The notes below the pieces were generated by a model. That model ran no database searches, was not told the origin of the DNA, and saw nothing but the letters and a program-made list of their open reading frames with translations. From IMG/VR virus record IMGVR_UViG_3300020044_005741, positions 1 to 44,501 of that record: 44,501 nucleotides of DNA, one strand, 5' to 3'. The stretch comes from a virus (taxonomy: Duplodnaviria > Caudoviricetes). The translations under genes and the position numbers were made by a program. Below are positions 22,853 to 44,501 of the stretch, piece by piece. The stretch's first letter is position 1. Every line of letters starts with the position of its first letter.

Positions 22853-23511
22853 CGATATGTGTATGAGTAGTGGCACTTGTACACAATTTCAAATTAGCAA
22901 TAAACTATCCGTGCCATTGCTTATACACGGTGTTAGTAGCCGTTTTTTATTCACGAATTTAATTAAAAATCAAATATATGGGAAGTGTAACTTACAAAAA
23001 TCAACCTGCAATTAACAAGACAAAAGGTAATGTGCCGTTGGCAGGAACGAGCCACATTTACAGAGTGCAAAAGAAACTATGGAATGATAGTATTGAAGAT
23101 GTTTTGCAGGGATTATTTATTGGTAAAACATTACACGTTTGCTGTGGTAAATCATTACTTGGTGACGTGAGATTGGATGCTGATGCTGAAAATAATCCTG
23201 ATATAATTTGCGATGCTTCAAATATGAAAGACTTTGTAAAGGATAACGAATTTGAAACCGTGATTTGTGACCCACCATACAACGGTAATTTCCAATGGAA
23301 TCACGATTTATTGGCAGAACTTTCAAGAGTAGCAAGTAAAAGGATTATTTTTCAGCATTGGTTTATCCCTGCAAACCCAACAGGAACATACAAAAAAGCA
23401 CAGGAAAAGTTTCTTTTGTCTGATGTATTAGTGTGGCAGCCCAAAACTTACTTTGGTCGGGTGCAGGTTGTTTCTGTATTCGATGCTGTTTCTTAAAATG
23501 GCTACTAACGA
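22853..23511. mobile_element. Integron-like gene cassette with split attC-like site
   Basis: CGA at both junctions; GGCTACTAAC (23500-23509) complementary to GTTAGTAGCC (22932-22941); 18-bp stem 22859-22876/22911-22928. Confidence 0.8.
22978..23496 (+). CDS. SAM-dependent (amino-)methyltransferase-like cassette cargo
   Basis: LHVCCG SAM-binding-like loop, IICDA, VICDPPY catalytic motif. Confidence 0.8.
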   Translation: MGSVTYKNQPAINKTKGNVPLAGTSHIYRVQKKLWNDSIEDVLQGLFIGKTLHVCCGKSLLGDVRLDADAENNPDIICDASNMKDFVKDNEFETVICDPPYNGNFQWNHDLLAELSRVASKRIIFQHWFIPANPTGTYKKAQEKFLLSDVLVWQPKTYFGRVQVVSVFDAVS

Positions 23512-23733
23512 GGAGGTTCACGAAATAATGAAGATGAAGTTCAACAGCGTGGAATTGATTAACGAAGATACGGGAGAGGTTATAGTAGTACCTAAAAGCA
23601 CAACGAAAAACACTAAGTTTGAACAGGAACAATACCACGAACAGATAAGAAACTTTGCGAAAGAGTGGTTTAATATTCACATACCGTTGCCGAATGAAGA
23701 AATTATACTAAATTCGTAAAAACAAACAAATCA

Positions 23734-24272: not shown

Positions 24273-24812
24273 ATGGAAACAAAAAGCGTTAAAATATCGG
24301 AGATTAAACCTAACCCGAATAACCCACGACTAATCAAAGATGATAAGTTTGCCAAGCTGGTGAAGTCAGTTAAAGACTTCCCTGAGATGCTGACCATTCG
24401 CCCGATAGTGGTTAATAGCGACATGATTATATTAGGCGGCAATATGCGATATAAAGCGTGCAAGGAAGCTGGGTTAAAAGAGATACCCGTTATTATTGCC
24501 GAAGGATTAACAGAGCAGCAGCAGAAGGAATTTCTGATAAAAGATAATGTGAGTGGTGGTGAATGGGATTGGGATATGTTGGCTAATGAGTGGGAGGTTG
24601 AGCAGTTAGAAGAGTGGGGATTAACCATCAATAATTTCAATACAGATAATATTGATTTAGATGCTTTTTTTGAAGATAGCAATGAGCAAAAAGAACAAAA
24701 AAATAAAATTGTACTTGAGTACACGGATGAAGAATTTGAATTAATAAATGAAGAATTTAAAAAACATTCAGGAAGCAAAGAGCAGATAATTTTTAAATTA
24801 CTTGGATTATGA
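24273..24812 (+). CDS. ParB/Srx-like N-terminal domain protein
   Basis: IKPNPNNPR...RPIVV...ILGGNMRYKAC...IKDN. Confidence 0.85.
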   Translation: METKSVKISEIKPNPNNPRLIKDDKFAKLVKSVKDFPEMLTIRPIVVNSDMIILGGNMRYKACKEAGLKEIPVIIAEGLTEQQQKEFLIKDNVSGGEWDWDMLANEWEVEQLEEWGLTINNFNTDNIDLDAFFEDSNEQKEQKNKIVLEYTDEEFELINEEFKKHSGSKEQIIFKLLGL

Positions 24813-25564
24813 TTGTTTATTTAGCGGGATTTAAAACTATAGAAAAAACGTGGAACAAACCTACAAAAGATATTTATTTATTAAGCTCATTTTGGGAACA
24901 TAAAAATGGAAAATTTGGCGAATATGTAACACAAGAAAAACATATTTTAGATAGTGGGGCATTTTCTGCAATAAATGACAAAACAGGAAAGTATAAAAAT
25001 TTCGATTGGGATGCTTATGTAAAAAAATACATTGCGTTTATAAAACATACTAATCAAAAGCTTTTTTTTGAATTAGATATTGACTGCGTGGTGGGTTTAA
25101 AAAAAGTAGAATACTATAGAAAACAAATTGAAGACGCTATTGGAATACCTCCTATTGTTTGCTGGCATTCAAATAGAGGTTCTGATTATTGGATTAAATC
25201 TTGTGAAGATTATCCTTATGTAGCTTTAGGAACAACAACAGCAAGTAATGCGGGTAAAAAGATAAGAGCAAATCCTGAAATACTACATTGGTTTATCAAT
25301 CATGCGCATAAAAATAAAGCCAAAATTCATGGATTGGGTTTTACTTCAACTCCTTGGTTAAAAAAATTAAAATTTGATAGTGTAGATAGTACGACTTGGA
25401 ATGTAGGCGGAAAATTTGGTAATGTTGTTTGTTTTGATAAGCAAGGATTGCCAACACAAAGATATAAAATGGATAAAACAAAAAAAGCAAAAACAATAGA
25501 GATAAATTTATACAATTTCAATCAATGGCTTAAATTTCAAAAATATGCAGAAAATAATTTATAA
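24809..25564 (+). CDS. TGT-fold DNA deazaguanine transglycosylase-like protein (DpdA-like)
   Basis: ILDSGAFS, ELDID, IHGLG, DSVDSTTW motifs; directly upstream of que genes. Confidence 0.75.
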   Translation: MIVYLAGFKTIEKTWNKPTKDIYLLSSFWEHKNGKFGEYVTQEKHILDSGAFSAINDKTGKYKNFDWDAYVKKYIAFIKHTNQKLFFELDIDCVVGLKKVEYYRKQIEDAIGIPPIVCWHSNRGSDYWIKSCEDYPYVALGTTTASNAGKKIRANPEILHWFINHAHKNKAKIHGLGFTSTPWLKKLKFDSVDSTTWNVGGKFGNVVCFDKQGLPTQRYKMDKTKKAKTIEINLYNFNQWLKFQKYAENNL

Positions 25565-25565
25565 C

Positions 25566-26183
25566 ATGAAAAAAGCAGTAATATTACTAAGTGGTGGACA
25601 AGACAGTACAACGTGCTTATATTGGGCAAAAAAACAATTTAATGATATTTATGCAATCGGGTTTGATTACGGTCAAAAACATAAAAATGAGCTTGAATCG
25701 GCTCAAAAAATTTGCGATAAAGAAAATATCAATTTTAAGATATTAAACATTGAACACTTATTAAATGTAAATAATGAAACTAACCTAAGACTAACAGAAG
25801 GTAGAAATAGTTTGTTTATCACAATAGCTGGTATATATGCAAAATCTTTAGGTATCACAGATTTAATAACTGGAACTTGCCAAATGGATTTCAACGACTA
25901 TCCCGATTGCCGAAGAAAATTTATTGATAGTATTCAATTAACCTTATCTTTAGGGATAGATATAGATTTTAGAATACATACTCCGTTGATGTATTTAACA
26001 AAAGCAGAAACATGGAAAATGGCTAAAGAATTAAATGTTCTTGATATAATTATAAATGACACCAGAACAGATTATAATGGGTCAGATATTTTTAATGAGT
26101 GGGGTTATGGGGTTAATGATAATCATGCAACTGAGTTAAGAGTAAAAGGGTTTTATGAAGCAAAAGAAAAAGGTTGGATATGA
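25566..26183 (+). CDS. queC: 7-cyano-7-deazaguanine synthase-like
   Basis: LSGGQDSTT, FDYGQKH, GRN, YPDCR, TPLMYLTK. Confidence 0.9.
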   Translation: MKKAVILLSGGQDSTTCLYWAKKQFNDIYAIGFDYGQKHKNELESAQKICDKENINFKILNIEHLLNVNNETNLRLTEGRNSLFITIAGIYAKSLGITDLITGTCQMDFNDYPDCRRKFIDSIQLTLSLGIDIDFRIHTPLMYLTKAETWKMAKELNVLDIIINDTRTDYNGSDIFNEWGYGVNDNHATELRVKGFYEAKEKGWI

Positions 26184-26229
26184 TAATAAAAAAAAAATAT
26201 CATAATAAATACTATTCAACTGAAAAAAT

Positions 26230-26586
26230 ATGAATATAATTAGCAAAGAATTTCATTTTAGTTCATCGCACCGAATAGACGGGTTATGTGATGGACACCC
26301 TTGCGGAAGATTGCATGGACACAATTATGTTTTAAAGGTATATTTGAAAGGAGAGCCAAACGAAGTTGGTTTTGTTCAAGATTACAACGATTTAAGACCA
26401 ATTAATGACTGGATAAATAATAACTTAGACCACAAGCACTTAAATGATGTGTTTGAATTCAATCCAACTGTTGAATTTATGAGTAAACACATTTTTAATA
26501 TCTTTAAAAAAGAATTTCCAAAACTACACGCTATTTCAATGAGTGAAACGCCAAAAACAAACTGCTATTATGAGCCAACATACTAA
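26230..26586 (+). CDS. queD: 6-carboxy-5,6,7,8-tetrahydropterin synthase
   Basis: SH, CGRLHGHNY, LDHKHLN, PTVE, ETP. Confidence 0.92.
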   Translation: MNIISKEFHFSSSHRIDGLCDGHPCGRLHGHNYVLKVYLKGEPNEVGFVQDYNDLRPINDWINNNLDHKHLNDVFEFNPTVEFMSKHIFNIFKKEFPKLHAISMSETPKTNCYYEPTY

Positions 26587-27184
26587 ATTAAAAATCTCTG
26601 AAATCTTCTATTCGTTGCAAGGAGAGGGGGCAAGAATTGGAACGCCTACAATATTTATAAGACTATCAGGCTGTAAGACAAAAAATGCCTGTTTTGCATC
26701 TGGTATAAAATGCGATACTGAATTTGAAAGCGGAAAAGAAATGCCAATAGAAGATATTAAAAAATGGTGCGTTGATAATGCGCCACAATGCAGAGAAATA
26801 ACGTGGACTGGTGGAGAGCCAACCGACCAACTTACAGAAGATATAATTGAGTTTTTTAATGCTCAAGAATATTTTCAAGCAATAGAAACAAGCGGACTAA
26901 ATCCAGTACCAAAAGGTTTGGATTTTATTTGCGTATCTCCAAAAGTTGCCGAGCATGTAGTAGCAAAAAATTTTCCTGATGGCGTTGATGAATTGCGATA
27001 TGTGAGGCATAAAGGGCAAGATGTACCAAAGCCAAGCATTCCAGCAAAACACTATTGGTTAAGTCCTCATTCGGACGGCTTCACAATCAATTCTGAAAAT
27101 CTTAAACATTGTATTGAACTCTGTAAACAAAACCCACAATGGAAATTATCACTACAAAACCACAAAATATGGAAAGTACTATAA
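26570..27184 (+). CDS. queE: 7-carboxy-7-deazaguanine synthase (radical SAM)
   Basis: [41 protein letters not shown]. Confidence 0.9.
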
Positions 27185-28011
27185 AAGAAAAATACTTTGT
27201 TACTTGGGAAGAAATCAAAGCTCTTGTTACAAAATATGACAATAAGTTAAAATATTACGGAGTACCAAGAGGAGGACAATATATAGCAGCAATGTTAAAT
27301 CCTGTAAATACTGCAGAAGAAGCTGATGTAATTATTGACGACTTAATTGATTCAGGAGACACTGCGTTGAGATATTTAGAAAAATATCCTGATAAACCAT
27401 TTCTTGCACTTATAGATAAACGAGTAAAAAGTGAATTAACAAATAAATGGATTGTTTTTCCGTGGGAATTAAAAGATGAACCAGTTGAAGATAATTTTGT
27501 GCGTATACTGCAATATCTTGGCGAAAATCCCAAAAGAGAAGGGTTAAAAGATACACCTAAAAGATATATTAAATTCCTAAAAGAGTTTTTGACACCAAAA
27601 GAATTTAACTTTACGACATTTGATGCCGAAGGAACTGATGAAATGATAATACAAACAAATATTCCATTTTATTCACTATGTGAACATCACATAGCACCAT
27701 TCTTTGGTGTTGCAAATGTAGCGTATATTCCAAACGGAAAAATAGTAGGGTTGAGTAAATTAGCGAGAACGGTTGACCTGTACGCAAACAGATTTCAAAA
27801 CCAAGAACGCATCACAACGCAAATAGCAGAAAGAATACAAAAAGAATTAAACCCATTAGGTGTAGCGGTAACAATGAAAGCGCAGCATCTTTGTATGTGC
27901 ATGAGGGGAGTAAAGAAACACGATACGTGGACTACAACAAGCAAAATGATTGGCGTGTTTAAAGATAATCTTAACGCAAGAAATGAATTTCTATCTTTAA
28001 TAAGTAAATAA
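27169..28011 (+). CDS. folE: Phosphoribosyltransferase-GTP cyclohydrolase I fusion
   Basis: N-terminal [27 protein letters not shown] (Gpt-like PRTase); C-terminal [32 protein letters not shown]. Confidence 0.9.
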
Positions 28012-28400: not shown

Positions 28401-29610
28401 CAAACAGATTGAAGCTAAGAGAGTAGCCGACACCAAGACATTCACCTTATACGGGGGTGCTATTCGTGGCGGCAAATCTTATTGGCTGCTGCTTTGCTTG
28501 CTTTCTAATTGCTTTAAATACGACAAAAGTAGATGGTTAGTGGTCCGCGAATCATTGCCAACATTACGTAGAACTATTCTCATAAGTTTTCAGCGGTTAT
28601 TAGATGAAGGATTCCAACAATACGTTAAGGAGTTCAATCAACAGACAATGACCGTTACCTTCACTAATGGTTCGCAAATCATTTTCCTAGCTGAATCATT
28701 CGACACCGATAAAGAGTTAAACAGATTTAGAGGGTTAGAGATTAATGGCGCTGGCTTAGACGAGATAAACGAACTACAAGAATCAACGCTAAATAAGGTA
28801 ATCGAGCGTAGTGGAAGCTGGACGGGTTCACCTAATTGCCCTATTCAAATCTTAGCAACTTGTAACCCGTCGGGCGGTTGGGTGAAGTCAAGGATATACG
28901 ATAAATGGAAGGATAACACATTACCACCAACGTGGGCGTACATACCAGCAAAGATTAGCGACAATCCGCACATACCTAAAGATTACATTGAATCACTTAA
29001 GGCGAATATGCCACCGCACGAGTACGATGTATTTGTGAATGGTAATTGGGAGGTTGATTTGAATGGCTCGTTATTTAAGCGCAATGATTTTAACTACTTT
29101 GATACATTGCCCGAAGGTACGCCCGATAGCGTGTTGGGTTATGTGGATATAGCCGACGAGGGTAGCGATTACCTTTGTGCGGTGTTTGCTAAGATATACG
29201 GGAAACAAATCTATATCACCGACGCTATCTTTACTCAGGATACTATTGACATCACATGTCCAATGGTAGCAGCTAAGATTAAAGAGTTGAATGTTGACTA
29301 TACACGAATAGAGGGGAACAATCAAGGGAGTGGTTTCATTCGCTTACTTCGTCAATCGGTGCAAGAAGATAAAGTATTGATGGTAAAGAATACGCAAAAC
29401 AAGCACACGCGAATTTTAATGAGTTACCACCTACTCAAAAATAAGTTCTTATACGTTAACCCCGAAAACCAAAGCGATGAATATAGGGCAATGATGCAGC
29501 AGATATACGAGTATAAGAAAGACGGTAAAAGCAAACACGATGACGCACCCGATGCAATGGCTGGTCTGGCTAAGTTCATTCAAGTGTTTATACCCCACGT
29601 ATTAGAATAA
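28369..29610 (+). CDS. Terminase large subunit
   Basis: GGAIRGGKS Walker A, AGLDE Walker B, TCNP, YVDIA, HDDAPDA. Confidence 0.93.
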   Translation: MAEAIRITPFNKQIEAKRVADTKTFTLYGGAIRGGKSYWLLLCLLSNCFKYDKSRWLVVRESLPTLRRTILISFQRLLDEGFQQYVKEFNQQTMTVTFTNGSQIIFLAESFDTDKELNRFRGLEINGAGLDEINELQESTLNKVIERSGSWTGSPNCPIQILATCNPSGGWVKSRIYDKWKDNTLPPTWAYIPAKISDNPHIPKDYIESLKANMPPHEYDVFVNGNWEVDLNGSLFKRNDFNYFDTLPEGTPDSVLGYVDIADEGSDYLCAVFAKIYGKQIYITDAIFTQDTIDITCPMVAAKIKELNVDYTRIEGNNQGSGFIRLLRQSVQEDKVLMVKNTQNKHTRILMSYHLLKNKFLYVNPENQSDEYRAMMQQIYEYKKDGKSKHDDAPDAMAGLAKFIQVFIPHVLE

Positions 29611-29612
29611 AT

Positions 29613-29641
29613 TTTGGCAATTAATTAAATAACTAATTTTA
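29613..29641 (+). promoter_or_regulatory. Putative late promoter upstream of portal
   Basis: TTTGGCAAT...TAATTTTA with 17-nt spacer after TTTG. Confidence 0.6.
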
Positions 29642-29655
29642 AAAAAAAATATTCC

Positions 29656-30918
29656 ATGAGTTACGTATCTAATTTAGTTGCTAAGATATTCGGCATCAAT
29701 ACCGTTAATGGTATGTTCACTCAATCGATATACGACCGCAAGAACCCGATTCTAATTGATACACAGAATAAACTGCAAATCTATAATACTATACCACACT
29801 TTCAATCGGTAGTTAACCAACTTGCCGATATGTTCAAAAACATGGAGGTTAAGCTGTATAATAAAAAGACGGGTGAAGAGGTGGAGAATCACCCAGTTTT
29901 AGACTTATTGAAAAACCCTAATCCTTTACGCTCATTTGAAGAGTTCTTATATGAGTACTACGTTTTTAAGTCAGTGTTCGGAAATGCTTTCATCTATCAA
30001 ATAAAAGGCTTGCCTAGCGCTTTACCTTCGCTAATGTGGAACTTACTACCTAGCGATGTTGAGGTAGTGCCAACGGGTAAACTATACAGTCAAACTACTA
30101 TTGATGGCATCATTAAGTCATACAAAGTGTACGACCAATCGACGTATATTAATGTTGCGCCAAGCGATATGATATACAAGAATGAAGGCGTAGGAGGTAA
30201 TTTGATTACTTCAATTAGTAAGGTTGATGCTTTGCAGTTGCCTTTATCAAATATCGTTGGGGCGTTAAAAAGTGAGAATGTATTGATAGTTGAGCGAGGC
30301 GCAGAAGGTATATTGAGCAATGAAACTAATTCCGATGGTGGCGCGATACCATTAGTTAAAGAAGAGCGTGAGCGTATCGAAAAAGAAATGCAGCGTACCT
30401 ACGGAATATTTGACGGGCAAAAAAGAAAGATTATAACTAATAGTTCTTTGAAATGGCAGCCGATGAGTTTTCCAATGAAGGACCTCATGCTGTTGGAGTG
30501 TATAGAGAGCGACTTTCAAAGCATTTGCGCAGCTTACGGTGCTGATAGGGATTTATTCCCAAGCACGAAGGGGGCGACATTTGAGAATAAAAACAACGGA
30601 TTAAAGGCAACATATCAAAATACTATACAACCTCAAGCGGACGATTTTATAAATACATTGAATAACGCGTTAGCACTAGACAAGCAAGGGTTATACCTAG
30701 AAGCGTGTTATAAGCACGTGCCAGTTTTACAAGAAGATAAGCAAATGGAAGAGCAAGCGGAGAAGACAGAAGCGGAAAAGAATAGCATAAATGTAAATAC
30801 TATAATCACTTTGAACGGTGCAGTTAAGAATGGAGAGATAAGCAGAGAGGTTGCGATAAGTATTCTTAGCGATGTTATGGAGTGCGATTTAGAAGATGCT
30901 AAAAAGTACATCAATTAA
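29656..30918 (+). CDS. Portal protein (HK97-like)
   Basis: HPVLDLLKNPNP, FGNAF, ICAAYG, TFEN, TIQP. Confidence 0.92.
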   Translation: MSYVSNLVAKIFGINTVNGMFTQSIYDRKNPILIDTQNKLQIYNTIPHFQSVVNQLADMFKNMEVKLYNKKTGEEVENHPVLDLLKNPNPLRSFEEFLYEYYVFKSVFGNAFIYQIKGLPSALPSLMWNLLPSDVEVVPTGKLYSQTTIDGIIKSYKVYDQSTYINVAPSDMIYKNEGVGGNLITSISKVDALQLPLSNIVGALKSENVLIVERGAEGILSNETNSDGGAIPLVKEERERIEKEMQRTYGIFDGQKRKIITNSSLKWQPMSFPMKDLMLLECIESDFQSICAAYGADRDLFPSTKGATFENKNNGLKATYQNTIQPQADDFINTLNNALALDKQGLYLEACYKHVPVLQEDKQMEEQAEKTEAEKNSINVNTIITLNGAVKNGEISREVAISILSDVMECDLEDAKKYIN

Positions 30919-30926
30919 AATAAAAA

Positions 30927-30955
30927 TTTGGCAATAGTTTTACTACTTAATTTTG
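30927..30955 (+). promoter_or_regulatory. Putative late promoter upstream of protease/capsid
   Basis: TTTGGCAAT...TAATTTTG with 17-nt spacer. Confidence 0.65.
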
Positions 30956-30965
30956 AAAAGAAAAC

Positions 30966-31832
30966 ATGAGCGAAGAAAATAAACATATCATTAGTGAAGC
31001 CGAAAAGAAGTCGGCTCATTATTCTGTTAAGTCAGCCGATGCTAATATTATAGATGTTAGTACATCTTCGCGTATTGTTACGGGTTTCTTTAATTCTTAT
31101 AACTTCTTCGATTCAGACAAAGACGTGTTGATAATGGGCGCTGCTAAGAAGTCGATAGATGAGCGTGGCGTGAATAGCAATGCGGTTGCAAAGATTAAAC
31201 ACGCTTTGAATCACGACTTAACGACATTGGTAGGTAAGTTGCAAGTGCTGGAGGAAACGACTAAGAACGGCATTACAGGCATATACTTTGAATCTAAGAT
31301 AGCCAACACTACTTTGGGAAATGATACATTGATTAACTATAAAGAGGGCATCTACGACAATCATTCAATAGGCTTTAAATACAATCAACTTTCATTAATC
31401 GAATCGGAAAAGAATCCTGTTGCGTGGAATGAAGTAGTGAGCAAGTTGATGAATCCTGATGAAGCAGAGAAGTACGGGTACTTATACCTTGTTAAAGAAA
31501 TAAATCTATTTGAAGGTTCGACTGTTGCCTTTGGTGCTAACTCATTAACTCCTTTCTTAGGTGTTAAAAGTGGCAATAAAGAAAGCATTACACTAGCATT
31601 AGACAGCAAATTAAATCAATTGATGCACACCGTAAAGAACGGTAGTCAATCTGATGACATGATGCACACGCTTGAATTGCAAATTAAGCAAATCAAACAA
31701 GTATTAAAAGAGATTGAAGTAGCAGAAGTCTTTAATAAGTCCACACTTGCAGAAGTGCCGAGCGAAGTAAAACCAAGCGAAAAAATGAAAACTATAAATG
31801 TAAGTGAAATAATTAAAAATCTAAATTTCTAA
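30966..31832 (+). CDS. Prohead protease (HK97 family)
   Basis: NHD, HSIGF, LFEGSTVAFGAN. Confidence 0.9.
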   Translation: MSEENKHIISEAEKKSAHYSVKSADANIIDVSTSSRIVTGFFNSYNFFDSDKDVLIMGAAKKSIDERGVNSNAVAKIKHALNHDLTTLVGKLQVLEETTKNGITGIYFESKIANTTLGNDTLINYKEGIYDNHSIGFKYNQLSLIESEKNPVAWNEVVSKLMNPDEAEKYGYLYLVKEINLFEGSTVAFGANSLTPFLGVKSGNKESITLALDSKLNQLMHTVKNGSQSDDMMHTLELQIKQIKQVLKEIEVAEVFNKSTLAEVPSEVKPSEKMKTINVSEIIKNLNF

Positions 31833-31834
31833 AA

Positions 31835-33067
31835 ATGGAAGCGAACGAAAAAGCGTTAGTTGACGCAATCAATGCCGAAGTAGGCAAAAAACTAGATGCA
31901 GTTAAACAAGCATCACAAGATGAAATTACATCTTTGAAATCTGAATTAGAAGCTGTAAAAGCTGCTAAAGAAGAATTGAAAAACGAAGTAAATGGAGAGA
32001 TTGTAAAATTAAAAGCGGCTAACGAAGCGGCATCTGTTAAAGCAGAATCTTACAAATCACTTGCTGACTTATTTGTTGATTCTTACAAAGAGATGTTGAA
32101 AGAAAACGGTAAGGACAAAATGAAGAAAAAAGGTTTTAGCGCTTCAATGGAAGTTAAAGCTGCTGGCACTATGACTACTGCTAACATCGATGCAGTTGGT
32201 ACTTCTTCTATTCCTTATGAATTAGCTTCTTTCTCAACTGGTTTGGTAAGAACTCAAAGACGCAGACCATTTATTATCGACCTTACCAACTTCGGTAGAA
32301 CAGATAAAATGTACGTTCAATGGGCTGAGATGGCTAACAACGACCCAGGCACTGCTGGTATGACTTCTGAGGGTTCAGCTAAAACTCAAGAAGATTTCGA
32401 CGTTAACGAAAAATCGGCTAAGGTTGAAAAAGTAACGGCTTACACTAAAGTATCAATGGAGATGTTAGATGACGTAGCTTTCATGGAAGCTGAAATCAGA
32501 AATAACTTAATTGAACTTATCGCATTGAAAGCTGATGCTGGTGTATTAAGTGGTAACGGTACAACACCGAACTTGAATGGTATCATCACTCAAGCAACTA
32601 CCTATGCTGCTGGTTCATTTGCTGGCACTTTCGGTACTTCTGCTAATAACTTCGATGTATTGCGTACTGCAATCAACCAAGTGGAGGCTGCTAACTACTT
32701 GCCTAGCGCAATCGTGTTACACCCAACAGATGCTACGTTCATGGAGTTGACTAAAGCGACTGATAATGGATATGTTGCACCATCTTTATTCGTGGTAAAC
32801 AACGGTATCACTACTTTCGCTGGCATCCCTGTAATTAAAAATACTGGTGTAACTGCTGGTACTTTCTTACTAGGTGATTTCAACCAAGTAAATGTTAGAA
32901 TGCGTCAAGATGCTACCATTTCAATGGGTCATGATGCGGACGACTTCACTAAAAACTTGATTACTATCTTAGCGGAAATGAGATTGGTTTGCTACATTCC
33001 ATCTAATAGAACTGCTGCTTTAGTAACTGGTTCTTTCTCAACTGCAAAAACTGCATTGAATGCTTAA
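31835..33067 (+). CDS. Major capsid protein (HK97 fold)
   Basis: N-terminal coiled-coil delta domain, EGSAK, VSMEMLDD, LSGNG, LLGDF, FTKNLITILAEMR. Confidence 0.95.
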   Translation: MEANEKALVDAINAEVGKKLDAVKQASQDEITSLKSELEAVKAAKEELKNEVNGEIVKLKAANEAASVKAESYKSLADLFVDSYKEMLKENGKDKMKKKGFSASMEVKAAGTMTTANIDAVGTSSIPYELASFSTGLVRTQRRRPFIIDLTNFGRTDKMYVQWAEMANNDPGTAGMTSEGSAKTQEDFDVNEKSAKVEKVTAYTKVSMEMLDDVAFMEAEIRNNLIELIALKADAGVLSGNGTTPNLNGIITQATTYAAGSFAGTFGTSANNFDVLRTAINQVEAANYLPSAIVLHPTDATFMELTKATDNGYVAPSLFVVNNGITTFAGIPVIKNTGVTAGTFLLGDFNQVNVRMRQDATISMGHDADDFTKNLITILAEMRLVCYIPSNRTAALVTGSFSTAKTALNA

Positions 33068-33073
33068 TTAATC

Positions 33074-33102
33074 GGGTGAGGGGGTTAAACCTCTCACCCT
33101 TT
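33074..33102 (+). terminator. Hairpin terminator after capsid gene
   Basis: GGGTGAG...CTCACCC-TTT; conserved in inverted copy 41012..41041. Confidence 0.7.
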
Positions 33103-33115
33103 AATATTTAAAAAG

Positions 33116-33292
33116 ATGGCAAAAAAAGTAAAAGAAGAAGTTGTTGAGGTTGTAAATGTTACTCCTATTCAGGGCAACGTATCAATCAAAATAATTAAAG
33201 ATACCCAACACTTAAAAGCTGGTGAAGTTTACAAAGAGAGCGGTGATATTGCTGCTATCTTAGTAGCTAAAGGAATCGCAGAAATTATTTAA
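33116..33292 (+). CDS. Small capsid-adjacent protein (58 aa)
   Basis: Manually translated MAKKVKEEVV...LVAKGIAEII; homolog at 40813..40992. Confidence 0.75.
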   Translation: MAKKVKEEVVEVVNVTPIQGNVSIKIIKDTQHLKAGEVYKESGDIAAILVAKGIAEII

Positions 33293-33318
33293 GTCGTTTG
33301 TTTGTTTATTGTTTGTTT

Positions 33319-33350
33319 AGGGGTGGGAGTGATTGCCCACCCTTTTTTTT
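33319..33350 (+). terminator. Intrinsic terminator
   Basis: GGGTGGG...CCCACCC followed by T8. Confidence 0.7.
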
Positions 33351-33362
33351 AAAGTTAATTAT

Positions 33363-33926
33363 ATGGCATCTATCTTAGTTCAAACTACTGACTTTACAGG
33401 GCTTTACGCGATAGCGCAAACGACCTATACAACGCCAATACTGCAAGCCTATATTGACGAATTCGAGAAGACTTACATTCGTAAGTTGCTAGGCTTAGAG
33501 TTGGGCGATTTGTTTATTGCAAGTGTATCAAGCTATGTGCCTGTTGGCGCTAGATACTTAGCAATCTACAATCCTTTAGCCATTCAAGTAAATGGAATTG
33601 AAACGGGCGTATATTTAAACGGGCAAAATTGGGTATCGGGTAGAATATACGAGAGCAGAGGAATGAAGGAAATATTAAAAGGCATCATCTATTGCCTATA
33701 TGTACAAGGCACTCAGGCGCACCATTCACAAAGTGGAGTGGCTAAGGCTACTGCCGATGTAAGCGCGGTGATGACGGGAGAGAATGCAGCGCGTATGGGC
33801 GAAATAAGACATAATGGTATCATTAGCGATTGGGAAGCGGTACAATACTACATTCAACAAAACATTGCAACTTATCCAGAGTTCGAGGGCTTTGAGCTTC
33901 AACCTAAATACAGCGCTATTCTATGA
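33363..33926 (+). CDS. Putative head-tail connector
   Basis: Position after capsid; start MASILV matches inverted homolog. Confidence 0.65.
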   Translation: MASILVQTTDFTGLYAIAQTTYTTPILQAYIDEFEKTYIRKLLGLELGDLFIASVSSYVPVGARYLAIYNPLAIQVNGIETGVYLNGQNWVSGRIYESRGMKEILKGIIYCLYVQGTQAHHSQSGVAKATADVSAVMTGENAARMGEIRHNGIISDWEAVQYYIQQNIATYPEFEGFELQPKYSAIL

Positions 33927-34621
33927 CGTACAAAACAGACATAATCGACTATTTAAGCGACGTGCTTAACGCGGTCGACAAAACGATAACAATACTAAGC
34001 ACTACCAACCCGTCGGCTGGGGTGTACACTATAACCGTTGATGACGTAAAGTGGATTCAACCAAGTATAGTTCTCTCAATAGGTAACAATGATTACACCG
34101 TAAGTTCGATTTCGGGCTGTGTGATTACGTTAATAGGTGCGAGTGCTATCGTGGTTAGTTCATTCACTTTACCAACGGTTTACTTCTTTCATGGCACAGT
34201 TAAAGAAACAAACATCACTTTAACTAAAAGGCAATTTGATACGCAGAAAACACCTTTAGTTTATCTTTTAGAGATATTCAGCGAAAGATTCAATGAAGAT
34301 GTAGACGAGTTCGAGCGCGTAAGTGATTTACGTTTATTCTTTCTTACTCATGCCAACTTTGAAGAGTGGGAAGTTGATGATTTCTACGCTAATTCGATTA
34401 AGCCAATGCAGCGCCTTACTCAACACTTTATCGACACGTTAAATAAACAAGTGAGGGTACAACAAATACGCGATTACGAGTTAACTAACCTTTCGAGGTT
34501 TGGCGTTTACGTGAACAATAAAGGATTTGAATCAACATTATTTGAAGATAAATTAAGCGGTGTTGAATTGCGTATTTCGTTGGAATTAAGAAAGCCAACC
34601 GATTGCTCTGGTTGCTGCTAA
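33923..34621 (+). CDS. Putative neck/tail-completion protein
   Basis: Position before major tail gene; conserved homolog 39475..40173. Confidence 0.6.
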   Translation: MTYKTDIIDYLSDVLNAVDKTITILSTTNPSAGVYTITVDDVKWIQPSIVLSIGNNDYTVSSISGCVITLIGASAIVVSSFTLPTVYFFHGTVKETNITLTKRQFDTQKTPLVYLLEIFSERFNEDVDEFERVSDLRLFFLTHANFEEWEVDDFYANSIKPMQRLTQHFIDTLNKQVRVQQIRDYELTNLSRFGVYVNNKGFESTLFEDKLSGVELRISLELRKPTDCSGCC

Positions 34622-34627
34622 AAAAAA

Positions 34628-34656
34628 TTTGGCAATAGGAATATAAAGTAAATTTG
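34628..34656 (+). promoter_or_regulatory. Putative late promoter upstream of major tail gene
   Basis: TTTGGCAAT...TAAATTTG with 17-nt spacer. Confidence 0.65.
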
Positions 34657-34694
34657 AGTATTAAATAAAAAACTAATTTTTAAAAATTAAAACT

Positions 34695-35624
34695 ATGGCA
34701 AATTGTTGCAGTCTTACAGTCGCAAATACAGGGTTTGGCTGTACCCCCATTATGGAAGTAGTGGAGAAATTCATTGAGGTTTCATACTTTAAAGAGGACG
34801 GAACTATCAACGAAATTGATTTGACAGATACTTTCAACTTAGCTTATTTTACCGCGCTTGTAAATAACGCTGATGAGACTTTACGCTGGTATCCATTGCC
34901 GTTCGTTAAGAATATGGTAGATGAGCGCGCAGATTCTGACTTTGAAACTTTTGATGACAAAACTAAAATTGAAAGACAAGTTGGTATTCGTTCAGTTAAG
35001 ACAATGATTACTACTTTAGGAAATAACGCTGGTGCTGTTTCTCCTCAAATGGTTGGTAAGATAAACGATAAGAAATGTAAAGTTTCGGGCTTGTTTGGTA
35101 TTACTAAATCAAAACAATTAGTAGGTGAAATGATTAATGATGGTTACTTGGCGCCAATTAGAATCGACAACGGTTCAATTTCTGCTAAATTAATCAAGAC
35201 TGGCTCAGGTGCTACGACTCAAAAAATTGATTTGTCTTTCGATTGGCATATTGATGTGCAAGATGAAAGATTGAGAACTTTGGAAGCTGATGAAATGAGT
35301 ACAGAAATTAGCTTGTTGAATGGTTTGTTAGATGTTACTTCAACATATTCTGCAATCGGTCAAACATCATTCAAAGCTACTTTAAAAACACAATACGGTT
35401 CATTCTTGAATCCCGTATTAGTTGAAGGTTTGGTTGCTGGTGATATGGCTCTTTACAATGTAACTGATAGTGCTTCGGTAACTATTACATCTATTGCTGA
35501 AAGTCCTGATGGAACGTATCAAATTAACTTTGCTTCGCAAACGGTTGCTGATGTGCTTCGTTTAACCATCACTAAAGACGGTTACAACTTCGCAGCAGTA
35601 ACAGCGAATACTATTACAATATAA
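34695..35624 (+). CDS. Putative major tail protein
   Basis: 309 aa with own promoter and terminator; codon usage resembles the capsid gene. Confidence 0.65.
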   Translation: MANCCSLTVANTGFGCTPIMEVVEKFIEVSYFKEDGTINEIDLTDTFNLAYFTALVNNADETLRWYPLPFVKNMVDERADSDFETFDDKTKIERQVGIRSVKTMITTLGNNAGAVSPQMVGKINDKKCKVSGLFGITKSKQLVGEMINDGYLAPIRIDNGSISAKLIKTGSGATTQKIDLSFDWHIDVQDERLRTLEADEMSTEISLLNGLLDVTSTYSAIGQTSFKATLKTQYGSFLNPVLVEGLVAGDMALYNVTDSASVTITSIAESPDGTYQINFASQTVADVLRLTITKDGYNFAAVTANTITI

Positions 35625-35631
35625 TACACTA

Positions 35632-35658
35632 AGGGGAGGGCTTCGGCTCTCCCTTTTT
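35632..35658 (+). terminator. Terminator after major tail gene
   Basis: Same TTCG hairpin as 414..439. Confidence 0.8.
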
Positions 35659-35670
35659 AAAACTAAAACA

Positions 35671-35931
35671 ATGGCAGCAGAAAATGAATTTTTAAAAGTT
35701 GGCGGTGTAACCTTCGCGCTTTATGGTGTGGCTGGTTTAACGAAAGATGAATTTGTATCGATGTACAAAGGCAGTCCCCATCTTACTGATGGCTTAGATA
35801 AGATATGGGCTACCTTAAAAGCAGAGTGCAAAGCGAAAGGTATTGTGTGGGCGGAAGATGCGTTAAAAGAAGCGCCAGCAAACACAGACCTACAAGTAAA
35901 GCCTAAGAAGAAAAAGAAAAGCGATAAGTAA
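35671..35931 (+). CDS. Tail-region protein, second allele of 452..712
   Basis: Clear homology. Confidence 0.8.
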   Translation: MAAENEFLKVGGVTFALYGVAGLTKDEFVSMYKGSPHLTDGLDKIWATLKAECKAKGIVWAEDALKEAPANTDLQVKPKKKKKSDK

Positions 35932-35934
35932 GCA

Positions 35935-36384
35935 ATGAAGGATTTAGCTGACATATGCAAAAGAGTTATTTATTTGCCTAAAATAGCGGATAAATTATTT
36001 ATCGCAGCTGTCAAAGAAAATGAAGCCTACATAAGAACTTTAAACCTTTATCAATTATACGAGCAAGGGGTAAATACAGATGCTGAAATAATAGGTTATT
36101 ATTCACCTGTATCTATTTATTTAAAAGGTGTTGCGGCTAATTACGGGAGAGATAGCAAGACAGACCACATTACCTTAAAGGATACGGGCGCGTTTTACGA
36201 TTCATTTAAGGTGGTGATTCAAAAAACGCAATTTAAAATAATAGCAGATGACAACAAAGACGGCAACCACCTACAAGACGCTTACCCTAAAATTATTGGT
36301 CTTACCGAAGAAAGTATGGGTAAACTTAAAGAGCGTATGCTTCCTATTATTATTGAAGATTTACGGACAGAAATACTGGGCTAA
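35935..36384 (+). CDS. Tail-region morphogenesis protein, intact divergent allele of 716..1173
   Basis: TDHITLKDTGAFY shared. Confidence 0.8.
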   Translation: MKDLADICKRVIYLPKIADKLFIAAVKENEAYIRTLNLYQLYEQGVNTDAEIIGYYSPVSIYLKGVAANYGRDSKTDHITLKDTGAFYDSFKVVIQKTQFKIIADDNKDGNHLQDAYPKIIGLTEESMGKLKERMLPIIIEDLRTEILG

Positions 36385-36814
36385 CATAGACGAGATGCCA
36401 ATTTATAACTGGTTAAAATGGCACGAGGATAAGGACGATAAGTGGCTAAGTAAAAAAGGCAAAGCTGGGTTACTTACTTCGTACTTCGGTAACCAGGTAA
36501 TGACTCAATTTATAGATCGTTTTGGCTTTAGTGAATCGTTTATAAAGGCACTCGAAAAGGAAAAGGAGTTGGTGTTGTTACAGGCACGAATGGCAATAAC
36601 AGAAGATAGGAGTCTAAGCGCGTTCATTAAGATTTGTCAAATAGAGATTGAAGCATTGAGAGCAGAAACGCAAGACAGAAGCGACTTTTACGAGATTAAA
36701 GGAGTATTAGAGCACGAAATGGGGTTTCAAATTGATATAAAGAAAGTAAGTGTAGCAGAATATTACACATATTTTAAAGCATTAAAAAAAATAAGACCTA
36801 AGCAAAATGGCTGA
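36353..36814 (+). CDS. Second allele of 1142..1603
   Basis: Near-identical C-terminus. Confidence 0.8.
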   Translation: MKIYGQKYWANIDEMPIYNWLKWHEDKDDKWLSKKGKAGLLTSYFGNQVMTQFIDRFGFSESFIKALEKEKELVLLQARMAITEDRSLSAFIKICQIEIEALRAETQDRSDFYEIKGVLEHEMGFQIDIKKVSVAEYYTYFKALKKIRPKQNG

Positions 36815-38072
36815 AAGCGGTAAAATAACGAGAGAGGATATAATCGCAAAGGACGCGTTCACATCTGCCGTTGAGGAAGCAAAAGAATTGTTAAAGGTTG
36901 TTACCGACATTCAAAACGCGTTAAAGACAAAGGCTAAGCAATCAACAGACGGCTTCGCTATTGCATCACCTCAAACACTTGATGATGTTGCTAAACTAAC
37001 CAAACAGATTGAAGACTTAAAGAAGCAAATAATAGCATTAGAGGCGGTAACGGAAAAACAAAAGAAAGCGACAAAGGACTTGACAGCGGCTCAGGCGCAA
37101 GAGAATTTAGCACGTCAAAAGCAACGCCAAGAGATAACCCAACAAGTTAAATTAAATAGCGACCTTACAAGCACATACGAGAAGCAAGTTGTTAGATTAG
37201 CGCAAATAAAAAAGGAGTTAAAGAACATTAGTGCGGAAGGTGGCAAAGCACCTAAGGCTTTGACTGATGAGTTCAAAAAATTAGATACAAGCGTAAGAAA
37301 AGCGGAAGAATCGGTAGGTGAGCATCAAAGAAGCGTTGGTAATTACAAGCAAGCATTAACTGGGTTGAGTGGTCCGCTGGGTAACGCTGCGAATGGTATT
37401 AGTGGAATGGGGCAAGCGTTAAAAGATTTGTTATTAAATCCCGTTGCGCTCGCTATTGCTGCCGTAGCTGCTGCTGTTTATGGCTTGTTTAAAGCGTTCA
37501 CCTCAACAGATAGTGGTGCTACTGAGTGGGCGGTTAAAATGGAGCAAGCATCTGCTGTTTTAGATGTGTTTAGAAAAAAAGCATTGAATGTAATTACCGT
37601 TTTATATGATATATTTAAAGGCGATTACATTGACGCTGCTATCGAAATGAATGAAGCGATTGGAGGAACGGCAGACCAATTAGGAAGAGCAACAGACGGC
37701 GCTCGTAAATATGTTGAAGCATTAGAGGACTTAGAGGATAGAATAAGCAACTACGCGGTTGCATCGGCTAAGGCAAGCCTTCAAATATCAGAGGCAGAAT
37801 TTAACGCAGCGGATAGAGCGTTTTCAATAAAACAAAGGAGAGATTTCTTAATCGAGGCGATTAATTTAAGTAAGGCAGAGGTTAAGGCTCAAAAGGATTT
37901 GGCAGAAGAAAAGTATAAAATAGAAGTTGGTTATTTGGCAGATAAAAGCGGCTTAACTGCAATGCAAATAATGCAATATGTTGATATGAGTGAGGCGCAA
38001 AAAGAGCAAGCCTCCTTTGATGTACAAACAGCGCGAAATAATTATGAAGAAGAATTTAAAGTTCTTATGTAG
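36807..38072 (+). pseudogene. Second tape measure allele, truncated at inversion junction
   Basis: N-terminal ~180 aa homologous to 1596..4037, then divergent; stop codon lies in the inverted sequence. Confidence 0.8.
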
Positions 38073-38164
38073 GCTTCGTTTTCTTTGACCGCAGCAATAA
38101 ATAATTTATCCGCTATTTTAGGCAAATAAATAACTCTTTTGCATATGTCAGCTAAAGCCTTCAT
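38055..38164 (-). pseudogene. 5' fragment of the 35935..36384 homolog
   Basis: MKALADICKRVIYLPK...YIRTLN cut at the junction. Confidence 0.8.
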
Positions 38165-38167
38165 TGT

Positions 38168-38428
38168 TTACTTATCGCTTTTCTTTTTCTTCTTAGGCTT
38201 GATTTGTGCATCTGTGTTTGCTGGCGCTTCTTTTAACGCATCTTCTGCCCACACTATACCTTTCGCTTTGCACTCCGCTTTTAAGGTCGCCCAAATCTTA
38301 TCTAAGCCATCAGTAAGCTGGGGAGTGCCTTTGTACATCGATACAAATTCATCTTTCGTTAAACCAGCAACACCGTAAAGCGCGAAGGTTACACCACCAA
38401 CTTTTAAAAATTCATTTTCTGCTGCCAT
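38168..38428 (-). CDS. Tail-region protein, third allele
   Basis: Near-identical to 35671..35931. Confidence 0.8.
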   Translation of the reverse strand: MAAENEFLKVGGVTFALYGVAGLTKDEFVSMYKGTPQLTDGLDKIWATLKAECKAKGIVWAEDALKEAPANTDAQIKPKKKKKSDK

Positions 38429-38440
38429 TGTTTTAGTTTT

Positions 38441-38467
38441 AAAAAGGGAGAGCCGAAGCCCTCCCCT
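38441..38467 (-). terminator. Terminator after major tail gene (inverted copy)
   Basis: Reverse complement of the TTCG hairpin. Confidence 0.8.
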
Positions 38468-38474
38468 TAGTGTA

Positions 38475-39404
38475 TTATATTGTAATAGTATTCGCTGTTA
38501 CTGCTGCGAAGTTGTAACCGTCTTTAGTGATGGTTAAACGAAGCACATCAGCAACCGTTTGCGATGCAAAGTTAATTTGATACGTTCCATCAGGACTTTC
38601 AGCAATAGATGTAATAGTTACCGAAGCACTATCAGTTACATTGTAAAGAGCCATATCACCAGCAACCAAACCTTCAACTAATACAGGATTCAAGAATGAA
38701 CCGTATTGTGTTTTTAAAGTAGCTTTGAATGATGTTTGACCGATTGCAGAATATGTTGAAGTAACATCTAACAAGCCGTTTAACAAGCTAATATCTGTGC
38801 TCATTTCGTCTGCTTCCAAAGTACGAAGTCTCTCATCTTGTACATCTAAATGCCAATCAAAAGCTAAGTCAATTTTTTGAGTCGTAGCACCTGAGCCAGT
38901 CTTGATTAATTTAGCAGAAATAGATCCGTTGTCGATTCTAATTGGCGCCAAGTAACCATCATTAATCATTTCACCTACTAATTGTTTTGATTTAGTAATA
39001 CCAAACAAGCCCGAAACTTTACATTTCTTATCGTTTATCTTACCAACCATTTGAGGAGAAACAGCACCAGCGTTATTTCCTAAAGTAGTAATCATTGTTT
39101 TAACTGAACGAATACCAACTTGTCTTTCAATTTTAGTTTTGTCATCAAAAGTTTCAAAGTCAGAATCTGCGCGCTCATCTACCATGTTCTTAACGAACGG
39201 CAATGGATACCAGCGTAAAGTTTCATCAGCGTTATTTACCAATGCGGTAAAATAAGCTAAGTTAAATGTATCTGTCAAATCAATTTCATTGATAGTACCA
39301 TCGTTTTTAAAGTATGAAACCTCAATAAATTTCTCCACTACTTCCATAATGGGGGTACAGCCAAACCCTGTATTTGCGACTGTAAGACTGCAACAATTTG
39401 CCAT
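38475..39404 (-). CDS. Putative major tail protein (inverted copy)
   Basis: Only a few residues differ from 34695..35624. Confidence 0.65.
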   Translation of the reverse strand: MANCCSLTVANTGFGCTPIMEVVEKFIEVSYFKNDGTINEIDLTDTFNLAYFTALVNNADETLRWYPLPFVKNMVDERADSDFETFDDKTKIERQVGIRSVKTMITTLGNNAGAVSPQMVGKINDKKCKVSGLFGITKSKQLVGEMINDGYLAPIRIDNGSISAKLIKTGSGATTQKIDLAFDWHLDVQDERLRTLEADEMSTDISLLNGLLDVTSTYSAIGQTSFKATLKTQYGSFLNPVLVEGLVAGDMALYNVTDSASVTITSIAESPDGTYQINFASQTVADVLRLTITKDGYNFAAVTANTITI

Positions 39405-39437
39405 AATTTTTAATTTTAAAAGTTATTATTTATTCAT

Positions 39438-39466
39438 CAAATTTAATTCAATTTATAATTGCCAAT
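39438..39466 (-). promoter_or_regulatory. Putative late promoter (inverted copy)
   Basis: ATTGGCAAT...TAAATTTG with 17-nt spacer. Confidence 0.6.
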
Positions 39467-39474
39467 TTTTTTTG

Positions 39475-40173
39475 TTAGCAATACCCACCGCAATCGGTCG
39501 GCTTTCTTAATTCAAGCGAAATTCTCAACTCAACACCACTCAATTTATCCTCAAACAATGTCGATTCAAAGCCTTTGTTATTCACGTACACTCCGAAGCG
39601 AGAAAGGTTAGTTAATTCGTATTCTCTTATCTGCTGAACTCTCACTTGTTTGTTTAATGTATCAATAAAGTGTTGTACCAATCTTTGCATAGGCTTGATG
39701 CTATTCGTGTAAAAGTCATCAACTTCCCACGCTTCAAAGTTAGCGTGAGTAAGAAAAAACAAACGCAAATCACTCACGCGCTCGAACTCATCAACATCTT
39801 CATTGAACCGTTCACTAAATATTTCAAGCAAATAAACCAGCGGTGTTTTCTGTGTATCGAACTGGCGCTTAGTTAAAGTGATGTTTGTTTCTTTAACCGT
39901 CCCATGAAAAAAGTAAACCGTTGGCAAAGTAAATGAAGTAACAACTATTGCAGCGCTACCACTTAGAGTAATCACACAGCCCGAAATCGAACTTACGGTG
40001 TAATCATTATTCCCTATCGATAGCACTATGCTTGGTTGAATCCATTTAACATCATCAACGGTAATGGTATAAACGCCCGCGCTTGGGTTACTTGTTGCCG
40101 TAATAGTTACGGTCTTATTCACCGCAGTTAGTACGCTATTCAAATAATCTATTATATCTGTTTTGTACATCAT
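39475..40173 (-). CDS. Putative neck/tail-completion protein (inverted copy)
   Basis: Homolog of 33923..34621. Confidence 0.6.
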   Translation of the reverse strand: MMYKTDIIDYLNSVLTAVNKTVTITATSNPSAGVYTITVDDVKWIQPSIVLSIGNNDYTVSSISGCVITLSGSAAIVVTSFTLPTVYFFHGTVKETNITLTKRQFDTQKTPLVYLLEIFSERFNEDVDEFERVSDLRLFFLTHANFEAWEVDDFYTNSIKPMQRLVQHFIDTLNKQVRVQQIREYELTNLSRFGVYVNNKGFESTLFEDKLSGVELRISLELRKPTDCGGYC

Positions 40174-40733
40174 AATATCGCGCTGTATTTAGGTTGTAAT
40201 TGCAAGCCATCGTACTCAGGATATGTTGCCGCGTTTACGTGAATATAGTATTGAACCGCCTCCCAATCGGATATGATTCCATTGTGTCTAATCTCGCCCA
40301 TACGCGCTGCATTCTCTCCCGTCATTACTATACCTACATCGGCTAAAGACTTAGCAACACCGCTTTGAGAATGATGCGCTTGAGTGCCTTGCACGTATAA
40401 GCAATAAATAATACCTTTCAATATTTCTTTCATTCCTCTACTCTCGAATATTCTGCCCTCTGTGTAATACTCTTGCAATAGACTAACACCGTTATTTAAG
40501 CCACTTACTTGAATTGCCAATGGATTAAAAACATTAACGTATCTTGCACCAACTGGCACGTTATTTACTACCGTTGCAATGAATAGGTCGCCAAGCGTTA
40601 AGCCTAACAATTTGCGGATATATGTTTTTTCAAACTCATCAATATAGGCTTGTAATATTGGAGTCGTGTATGTTGTTTGAGCGATGTAATAAAGCCCAGT
40701 GAAGTCTGTTGTTTTAACTAATATTGATGCCAT
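40170..40733 (-). CDS. Putative head-tail connector (inverted copy)
   Basis: Homolog of 33363..33926. Confidence 0.65.
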   Translation of the reverse strand: MASILVKTTDFTGLYYIAQTTYTTPILQAYIDEFEKTYIRKLLGLTLGDLFIATVVNNVPVGARYVNVFNPLAIQVSGLNNGVSLLQEYYTEGRIFESRGMKEILKGIIYCLYVQGTQAHHSQSGVAKSLADVGIVMTGENAARMGEIRHNGIISDWEAVQYYIHVNAATYPEYDGLQLQPKYSAIL

Positions 40734-40812
40734 AATTATAAATTTATCTTTAAAAAAAAGGTGGGTTTTTTACCGCCCACCTCCAAACAAAACAAACAAA
40801 CAAAAGTGTTTT

Positions 40813-40992: not shown

Positions 40993-41046
40993 TTTTTATA
41001 GTTTTAAAATTAAAGGGTGAGGTGTTTTAATTCCTCACCCTATTAA

Positions 41047-42279: not shown

Positions 42280-42282
42280 TTT

Positions 42283-43152: not shown

Positions 43153-43169
43153 GCAGTATTTTATTTAGT

Positions 43170-43198: not shown

Positions 43199-43206
43199 TT
43201 TTTATT

Positions 43207-44469: not shown

Positions 44470-44501
44470 TTGAATAATTTTTTTTAAAATTAAGTATTAA
44501 A

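Follow-up and report, generated by a model that had tools for sequence, protein, structure and literature searches.

How a complete gene cassette came to interrupt a ninB-like gene in a tailed phage that has no integrase of its own is the question raised by this locus. The window is the whole stretch of DNA analysed, the 44,501 nucleotides of IMG/VR record IMGVR_UViG_3300020044_005741. A first-pass annotation, made from the sequence, had attributed the insertion to a host-encoded IntI-like recombinase acting in trans. The analysis described below indicates that the cassette quite probably came as a circle from an array of another phage or prophage and was inserted by a recombinase without the I2 insertion of IntI, through a single exchange of AA|C with AT|C.

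The insert and the empty alleles of ninB

CGA is found at 22853 and again at 23509, flanking a 656-bp insert, and a frame of 143 aa is regained when 656 bp are deleted. The flanking CGA and the regained frame had been seen in the first-pass annotation. Four registers of the deletion, from 22853-23508 to 22856-23511, are equivalent in this respect. Nearby in-frame deletions also give open frames, so frame restoration by itself is not diagnostic. The boundary was instead fixed by empty alleles that read through the site, the search for which had been suggested at the outset. A ninB search returned 26 loci, including 20 close relatives (82-92% aa), and all 20 have an empty site and an intact 143-aa protein, with sequence continuous across the site. 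The C allele, G|AT on the - strand, was present in 5 of the 20 and the T allele in 15; the insert occupies the C allele, and its crossover position is resolved to within four positions. One intact empty-allele protein matched the PHROG NinB/Orf family with E 2.6e-18.

Freshwater sequencing runs were also searched. In contigs from five of eight runs the joint leaves out 656 bases exactly (3 letters are ambiguous). A sixth run has the T allele of the empty site, although X10 and X12 are possibly one data set, which affects these counts. The filled allele was found in none of the eight runs, and there were no matches to it in IMG/VR in a search that may leave out the record itself.

The coordinates of the features are given in Table 1. 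At the left junction the target half reads AT|C, in contrast to AA|C in the array copies. The frame of the ninB 5' half now extends through the hairpin to a stop at 23015. At the other end, one base separates the cargo stop from an ATG contributed by the cassette end (23494-23500). This ATG, at 23498 and in frame with the ninB 3' half, could serve as a restart giving a 73-aa product, and a split NinB might in that way still be made.

Table 1. Coordinates of the cassette, its hairpin and the interrupted gene
Feature	Position	Strand	Basis
ninB/orf-like gene 5' half, 74 codons	22632..22852	+	NinB E 0.004, relatives
Gene cassette, 656 bp	22853..23508 (equivalent registers to 22856-23511)	+	empty alleles, run contigs, L056 copy
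Left junction CGA, common to cassette and target	22853..22855	+	sequence; L284
attC-like hairpin body	22854..22931	+	fold; model R1, 53 bits, E 1e-8
Hairpin parts	spacer 22854-58, arm 22859-76, loop 22877-910, arm 22911-28, spacer 22929-31	+	fold
R box, GTT side	22932..22941	+	complementary to 23500-23509
Cargo, 172 aa, predicted minimal class I SAM-dependent amino-methyltransferase	22978..23496	+	DPPY, folds, PHROG
ninB 3' half	23498..23719	+	sequence
R box, AAC side	23500..23509	+	inferred cut AA|C; right junction CGA 23509-23511
Right half of ninB target	23509..23526	+	T at +9, CG at +13/14

The phage and its contig

The window carries tailed phage genes, namely portal, prohead protease, capsid, terminase, RecT/YqaJ and queuosine pathway genes. 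The host is probably a member of the Bacteroidota, judging from where relatives of the cassette and of its hairpin occur. A direct repeat (88-78%) with a spacing of about 35.2 kb pairs positions 1-2135 with 35219-37346. Moreover, head and tail genes are present as 72-95% identical inverted and direct copies (29637-36044 vs 38055-44488). This layout suggests a 35.2-kb genome followed by pieces of related strains, some of them inverted, and the contig looks chimeric; the insert is outside the duplicated segments. Clustered at 24809-28011 are queC, queD, folE, a TGT-like gene and a radical-SAM gene, a set typical of 7-deazaguanine DNA modification pathways.

The cargo gene

Amino-methyltransferases are recognized by the motif (D/N/S)PP(Y/F). 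In the cargo family the motif is DPPY, invariant in 86 sequences, and the structure model of the cargo (pLDDT 82) combines it with a class I fold. Class I methyltransferases matched the model at TM about 0.5, with RNA amino-methyltransferases first. The cargo has DPPY and the class I SAM-dependent fold in common with the orphan phage DNA amino-methyltransferases of PHROG 3816 and 11619, to which its sequence matches are weak (E 2e-7 and 9e-6), but it differs from them in being only 172 aa long and in having RNA amino-methyltransferases as its best folds. No match was found in Pfam or NCBIfam, and a profile search of the PDB returned RsrI alone, at E 0.09. The substrate may be DNA, and the enzyme would then methylate phage DNA against restriction. 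Since the cargo is co-directional with the operon, it would not need its own promoter; a promoter scan was at chance level.

The hairpin at the circle junction

When the ends of the insert are rejoined, they form a 98-nt hairpin consisting of 10 Watson-Crick pairs, spacers of 5 nt and 3 nt, an 18-bp stem and a 34-nt loop. A hairpin of about this size with G-T mismatches on the + strand had been proposed for the circularised insert, and refolding recovered it with three G-T pairs on the + strand of the 18-bp stem. With DNA energies, the fold of the circle junction had z = -3.83 on the + strand, where 0 of 300 shuffles were as stable, and z = -2.62 on the - strand, where 5 of 300 were. The folding energy was -17.9 kcal/mol for the presumed recombining G-T strand vs -15.0 kcal/mol. 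The in situ stretch without the circle junction has no significant structure (z -1.43). An Rfam search of the window stretch and of ten loci with whole hairpins gave no relevant family.

The hairpin was compared with the attC sites of integrons (Nivina 2016, PMC5027507). As in attC, the imperfect hairpin is closed by R boxes with conserved AAC/GTT, whose inverted repeat reaches about 15 bp, and it has an unpaired central spacer and a variable terminal loop, the length of which differs widely across sites. G-T mispairs are in excess and the folding energy is lower on the recombining strand, whose AA|C fits the junction, and each unit holds one gene. The break had been called compatible with AA|C and the empty target had been read as G|AT on the - strand, in agreement with a junction at the AAC of the G-T strand and with the C allele. 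Unlike attC, however, the hairpin has no extrahelical bases opposite the AAC arm. The body contains three G-T wobbles and no bulged bases, and the stem is ungapped at this site and in the aligned sites of the hairpin family, so the absence of extrahelical bases noted in the first pass is borne out. The family further differs from attC in having two fixed G-T wobbles.

The hairpin family

Scanning 632 kb of loci for the structure yielded 68 sites, compared with 0 in 538 kb of block-shuffled sequence, and spacer asymmetry and G-T polarity were concordant in 66 of the 68. In 46 aligned sites the inner stem has 19 pairs, ungapped and without a bulge, and two-sided changes were seen at 16 of these pairs, figures that are inflated and partly circular because the sites were picked by a hairpin scan. 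Arm sequences are not conserved, but the arms covary. AAC/GTT was invariant in 46 of 46 sites, partly by selection. The fixed wobble columns played no part in site selection; G-T was present at one stem pair in 43 of 45 sites and at another in 31 of 44.

Model R1, built from the aligned sites, was run on 151 genomes sampled from the phylum of a Bacteroidota MAG, with only 21 candidates scored per genome, and had matches in 84. The R1 counts are lower bounds, since the sites of P12002L and Leef_1 and most of those of the Freya phages were found by the scanner and missed by R1. In the window the one R1 match is the truncated site of the insert. The Vibrio attC sites (L407) gave no matches with either R1 or the scanner.

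Two further observations concern the contents of these sites and arrays. In long non-host sites (about 120 nt) a loop ATG opens a frame through the 3' arm in 51 of 114, for example at 3530-3651 of L004; the corresponding count for short sites, whose loops give less room, is 0 of 176. The host array of G127 (L124-L126) includes several IS110-sized genes, one of them confirmed, and a gene for a retron-type reverse transcriptase.

Gene polarity in host and phage cassettes

The bottom strand of attC is cleaved at AA|C and is richer in G-T mispairs (Nivina 2016, PMC5027507). If the G-T strand is the bottom strand, the junction is expected at its AAC, and the window junction falls there. Gene polarity was called on this basis, in whole loci and by two measures. 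At viral sites the gene is on the G-T strand in 63 of 65 cases by ORF and 67 of 68 by purine skew, which is an inverted arrangement, whereas at host sites it is opposite the G-T strand in 52 of 55 and 56 of 59, respectively, which is canonical. Metagenome loci show the viral polarity (74 of 93 by ORF, 112 of 114 by purine skew). An earlier ORF tally (36 same, 45 opposite) was discarded because its 560-nt cut-outs miss long genes.

A canonical integron cassette has its gene on the top strand with the hairpin downstream. This arrangement was found in the host arrays but not in the insert, where, as in other phage cassettes, the gene is on the G-T strand and the hairpin consequently precedes it. 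The first-pass description of a hairpin upstream of the cargo was correct for the insert; as a trait of the whole system it does not hold, because it belongs to the phages and host cassettes are canonical.

The candidate recombinase

The window has no match to the tyrosine-recombinase Pfam family or to the phage array recombinase, which extends the earlier remark that no integrase is nearby to the whole contig. A tyrosine recombinase lies <12 kb from sites in 10 of 11 hit-rich host genomes; the array of the other genome, G021, has no recombinase close by. At 8 host loci a junction, identified by the R-box partner of the nearest site, lies no more than about 170 bp from the recombinase. Furthermore, the phage contig L072 encodes its own 267-aa recombinase, which ends an inverted array that includes the body type of the insert. 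This protein has 228 relatives in IMG/VR. Among 79 other fetched loci, model matches were found in 48, and 260 of 261 were on the recombinase strand, all upstream. By the scanner, all 145 sites around the phage recombinase were upstream of it (0 downstream), in 51 of 61 loci, and a conserved junction lies 48-65 nt before the recombinase start in 38 of the 40 loci listed. A search of viral contigs with the host recombinase gave one locus, L144, without a site nearby. Of the 79 contigs (L307-L385), 13 have <500 bp of sequence before the phage recombinase, which is what breakage of assemblies at variable arrays would produce.

The array-linked recombinase resembles IntI and Xer (PMC7790495, PMC4889954) in its catalytic R-K-H-R-H-Y motifs, and it shares with IntI an adjacent attI-like site and a cassette array. 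Its best profile matches were XerA and IntI, below the TIGR02249 cut-off. The K-to-H spacing is 52-54 in the phage enzyme and 58-59 in the host set, only part of which demonstrably heads arrays, compared with 101 in Vibrio IntI and 62-69 in XerC/D-like proteins. On this measure neither the phage nor the host version has the I2 insertion, and every array-linked enzyme measured was without it. In this the candidate differs from IntI: integron integrases are held to owe single-strand recombination to the I2 helix (PMC7790495, PMC4889954), and recombinases without intI_Cterm, also those near attC sites, are held not to be IntI (Cury 2016, PMC4889954). In a quick tree the recombinases grouped with the single IntI included, which has a long branch, and apart from XerC/D-like proteins (SH-aLRT 95). 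Of the original proposal, action in trans stands, because the phage has no such enzyme; the description as IntI-like and host-encoded has to be amended, given that the array-linked enzyme is without I2 and that in many phages the enzyme at the head of an inverted array is encoded by the phage itself.

A homologous recombinase, 52% identical to the host array enzyme, is encoded beside tet(X3) on an Acinetobacter plasmid (L405, 3022-3687); no hairpin was found beside that gene. Among the isolates Freya_1 to 10, the sequence immediately before the recombinase varies by up to 4 kb (Freya_10, L402, 1-4146), in a stretch that holds small genes and at least one site. These differences could reflect array variation or the choice of genome end.

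The cassette and its hairpin in other loci

The cargo protein has 614 homologues, and the cargo was found at 92-98% identity in unrelated phage contexts. An array copy in L056 is 94.5% identical over insert nt 7-656. Locus L284 is 100% identical to insert nt 1-84, is directly preceded by TAA and has another gene behind the body; as the match begins straight after TAA, the left end of the insert is at the C of AAC. The first-pass annotation had proposed looking for these ends with different cargo and in arrays next to a tyrosine recombinase, and both were found in other loci.

Among 125 distinct copies of the hairpin body of the insert, AAC precedes nearly all. It is plainly absent only in the window, L258 and L282, and all three read W-W-C. 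Ten of 13 'NON-AAC' tags were register offsets with AAC present and are no true exceptions. The left ends alone are available for L258 (near 1449, TA|C) and L282 (near 250, TT|C); both appear to truncate a gene, and they are candidate secondary insertions.

Pairs of loci carrying the body of the insert share the downstream gene alone in 34 cases and the upstream gene alone in 0. Bodies at least 95% alike with unrelated flanks were seen in 264 + 12 pairs, and of 8 unselected pairs with the downstream gene in common, 4 have different bodies. The loose link between body and gene indicates that exchange occurs at the GTT end too, AA|C being the favoured break. Top-strand recombination or homology between arms would account for the exchange at the GTT end.

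Two variations on the cassette were also observed. In X1 and X3 an identical cargo (window 22942-23499) is found with a different R-box pair, whose two ends have kept their complementarity, and an attI-like end comes next; X14 has the same right end. Comparison of these sequences suggests that the R-box ends are corrected against each other. In L001, L006, L007 and L018 the cargo has no hairpin and lies between direct repeats of about 26-43 bp, which may represent a second capture route.

The target site

The 22 phage array ends and 8 host junctions compared have an attI-like consensus in common: 29 of the 30 carry T at +9, and YG predominates at +13/14. The matrix used 22 distinct ends of 36, leaving out those with a partner under 10/10 and six hairpin-body- or tRNA-like loci. 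Scored against it, the ninB target ranks among the best 1.5% of the 6579 WW|C sites in the window (the best 9% under a host-only matrix), and its score is 2.7 vs a training median of 9.5. The target is best read as a secondary site and a weak attI mimic, comparable to the GWT attG sites of IntI1.

Insertion of cassettes by IntI1 uses GWT targets and a replicative single-strand exchange (10.1101/2022.09.11.507474). The crossover in ninB has a GWT core (minus-strand G|AT) provided that the cut falls at AA|C, a placement that is subject to the four-position ambiguity. The locus resembles the SALINs and attC x attG events described there in being a lone cassette at a G|WT-compatible site, with no integrase in the replicon and a gene disrupted. 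It differs from them in that the target is a phage gene, the cassette is inverted and the candidate enzyme is not IntI. In addition, the CRGM motif at +6 to +9, a feature of IntI1 hotspots only, is absent (the target reads AAAC), and there is instead a weak likeness to the attI of the cassette's own system.

Mechanism and alternatives

In the proposed sequence of events the cassette would be excised as a circle from the array of another phage, and a Xer-like tyrosine recombinase would paste it into ninB at the G|AT secondary site. As the phage has no such recombinase, the insertion was most likely made in trans. The G-T strand, here the coding strand, would fold as single-stranded DNA and be cut at AA|C, and one strand exchange with the double-stranded AT|C target would be resolved by replication, as for attC x attG. 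The fixed G-T wobbles and the 5/3 spacer asymmetry would replace extrahelical bases. A host array and a co-infecting phage or prophage are about equally probable as the source of the enzyme; the body of the insert is of the phage type and occurs beside the phage enzyme in L072, but arrays such as those of P12002L have no annotated integrase. Loss of ninB would be tolerated, and the nin region of lambda is dispensable. The enzyme, having no I2, would have to avoid the second exchange in some other way (PMC7790495).

The junctions alone do not separate this single-strand route from one in which the same recombinase acts on double-stranded DNA, in a Xer- or Tn916-like reaction with a mismatched overlap, and the hairpin is a cruciform or an mRNA structure. 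An enzyme without I2 and sites without extrahelical bases would suit that route, as would the coincidence of the G-T strand with the mRNA strand in phages and the open start codon in the loop of 51 of 114 long sites. It seems rather unlikely nevertheless, since the G-T strand of hosts is non-coding and mRNA folding fails to explain the bias there, the arms covary without sequence conservation, and attC sites are known to have more G-T pairs on the strand that recombines (PMC5027507). Capture by the RecT and YqaJ encoded by the phage (Red-like), or illegitimate recombination through the 3-bp CGA microhomology, would make the hairpin a passenger. The hairpin-free cargo between direct repeats of about 26-43 bp in L001, L006, L007 and L018 and the swapping of hairpin bodies between genes are in its favour. 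This explanation is unlikely because the homology here is merely 3 bp, both ends fall at AA|C, where array units and attI-like ends begin or stop, and the insert is one complete permuted cassette.

It was also considered that the filled allele is a chimera of assembly or amplification. The contig does contain diverged duplicates of head and tail genes, inverted and direct (72-95% identity), neither junction turned up a second time in the eight runs or IMG/VR, and the cargo and the empty allele are present in the same runs. However, assembly joins require long overlaps rather than 3 bp, two independent joins would each have to fall on the AA|C position, and the insert is outside the duplicated part of the contig, all of which makes a chimera very unlikely. 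Least probable of all, and barely credible, is insertion by a canonical IntI, with I2, of some host. IntI1 does insert cassettes at GWT sites (10.1101/2022.09.11.507474), and it recombined several phage-borne attC sites (PMC9892861). Against this, I2 is absent from every array-linked enzyme measured, complete integrons are reported to be very rare in Bacteroidetes (PMC9024848), and attC1 of phage P12002L, which has the polarity seen here, was the site whose junction with attI1 was not verified (PMC9892861).

Relation to known systems

The locus has an integron/SALIN-like footprint that departs from integrons in two defining features, I2 and extrahelical bases. No description of such a system was found in the open-access literature, subscription papers being largely outside the coverage. 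We lean slightly towards the broader view that Bacteroidota and their phages share a widespread, undescribed sister system of integrons. In it a recombinase without I2 would act on single-stranded G-T-wobble hairpins, and the phages would hold a mirror-image pool of cassettes, many with their own enzyme and attI; the insert would then be an in-trans footprint on a third-party phage gene. What the locus adds to the arrays is a pair of filled and empty states that fix the extent of the cassette, its polarity and the off-target core.

Such a system would account for a large reservoir of cassettes that has gone unseen in a phylum described as almost free of integrons; one complete integron is named in Bacteroidetes in the available text of Neron 2022 (PMC9024848). 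It would also give phages a site-specific means of gaining small accessory genes, such as anti-restriction methyltransferases. If this view is true, the enzyme is a living model of the IntI ancestor before I2. A natural enzyme without I2 that is tied to bulge-free hairpins makes the role of I2 directly testable, and the Polaribacter phages Leef_1, Freya_10 and P12002L are cultured systems for such tests.

The integrases of Leef, Freya and Ingeline were taken as signs of a temperate lifestyle by Bartlau 2021 (PMC8776804), in the available text of which cassettes are unmentioned. The scanner found 3 sites upstream of the integrase in Leef_1 and 1 in Freya_10, and one weak, inconsistent match in Ingeline_1. 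If the broader view holds, many of the flavophage 'integrases' behind temperate calls would be cassette-shuffling enzymes.

Clusters of attC sites in phages were described by Qi 2023 (PMC9892861). The CALINs of Polaribacter phage P12002L reported there resemble the present locus in occurring in a Bacteroidota phage, with attC-like sites, DNA methyltransferase cassettes and no integrase. The sites were treated as ordinary attC sites with 'divergent directions', and the available text gives neither a cognate enzyme nor an insertion with an empty allele. In our analysis the scanner found 5 sites of the present hairpin family in P12002L, on the coding strand, and its arrays have no annotated integrase. 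On our reading attC1 would be an inverted-type site and attC2 would coincide with the attI-like array end. Positions 29248-32924 of P12002L (L065) comprise a whole inverted array.
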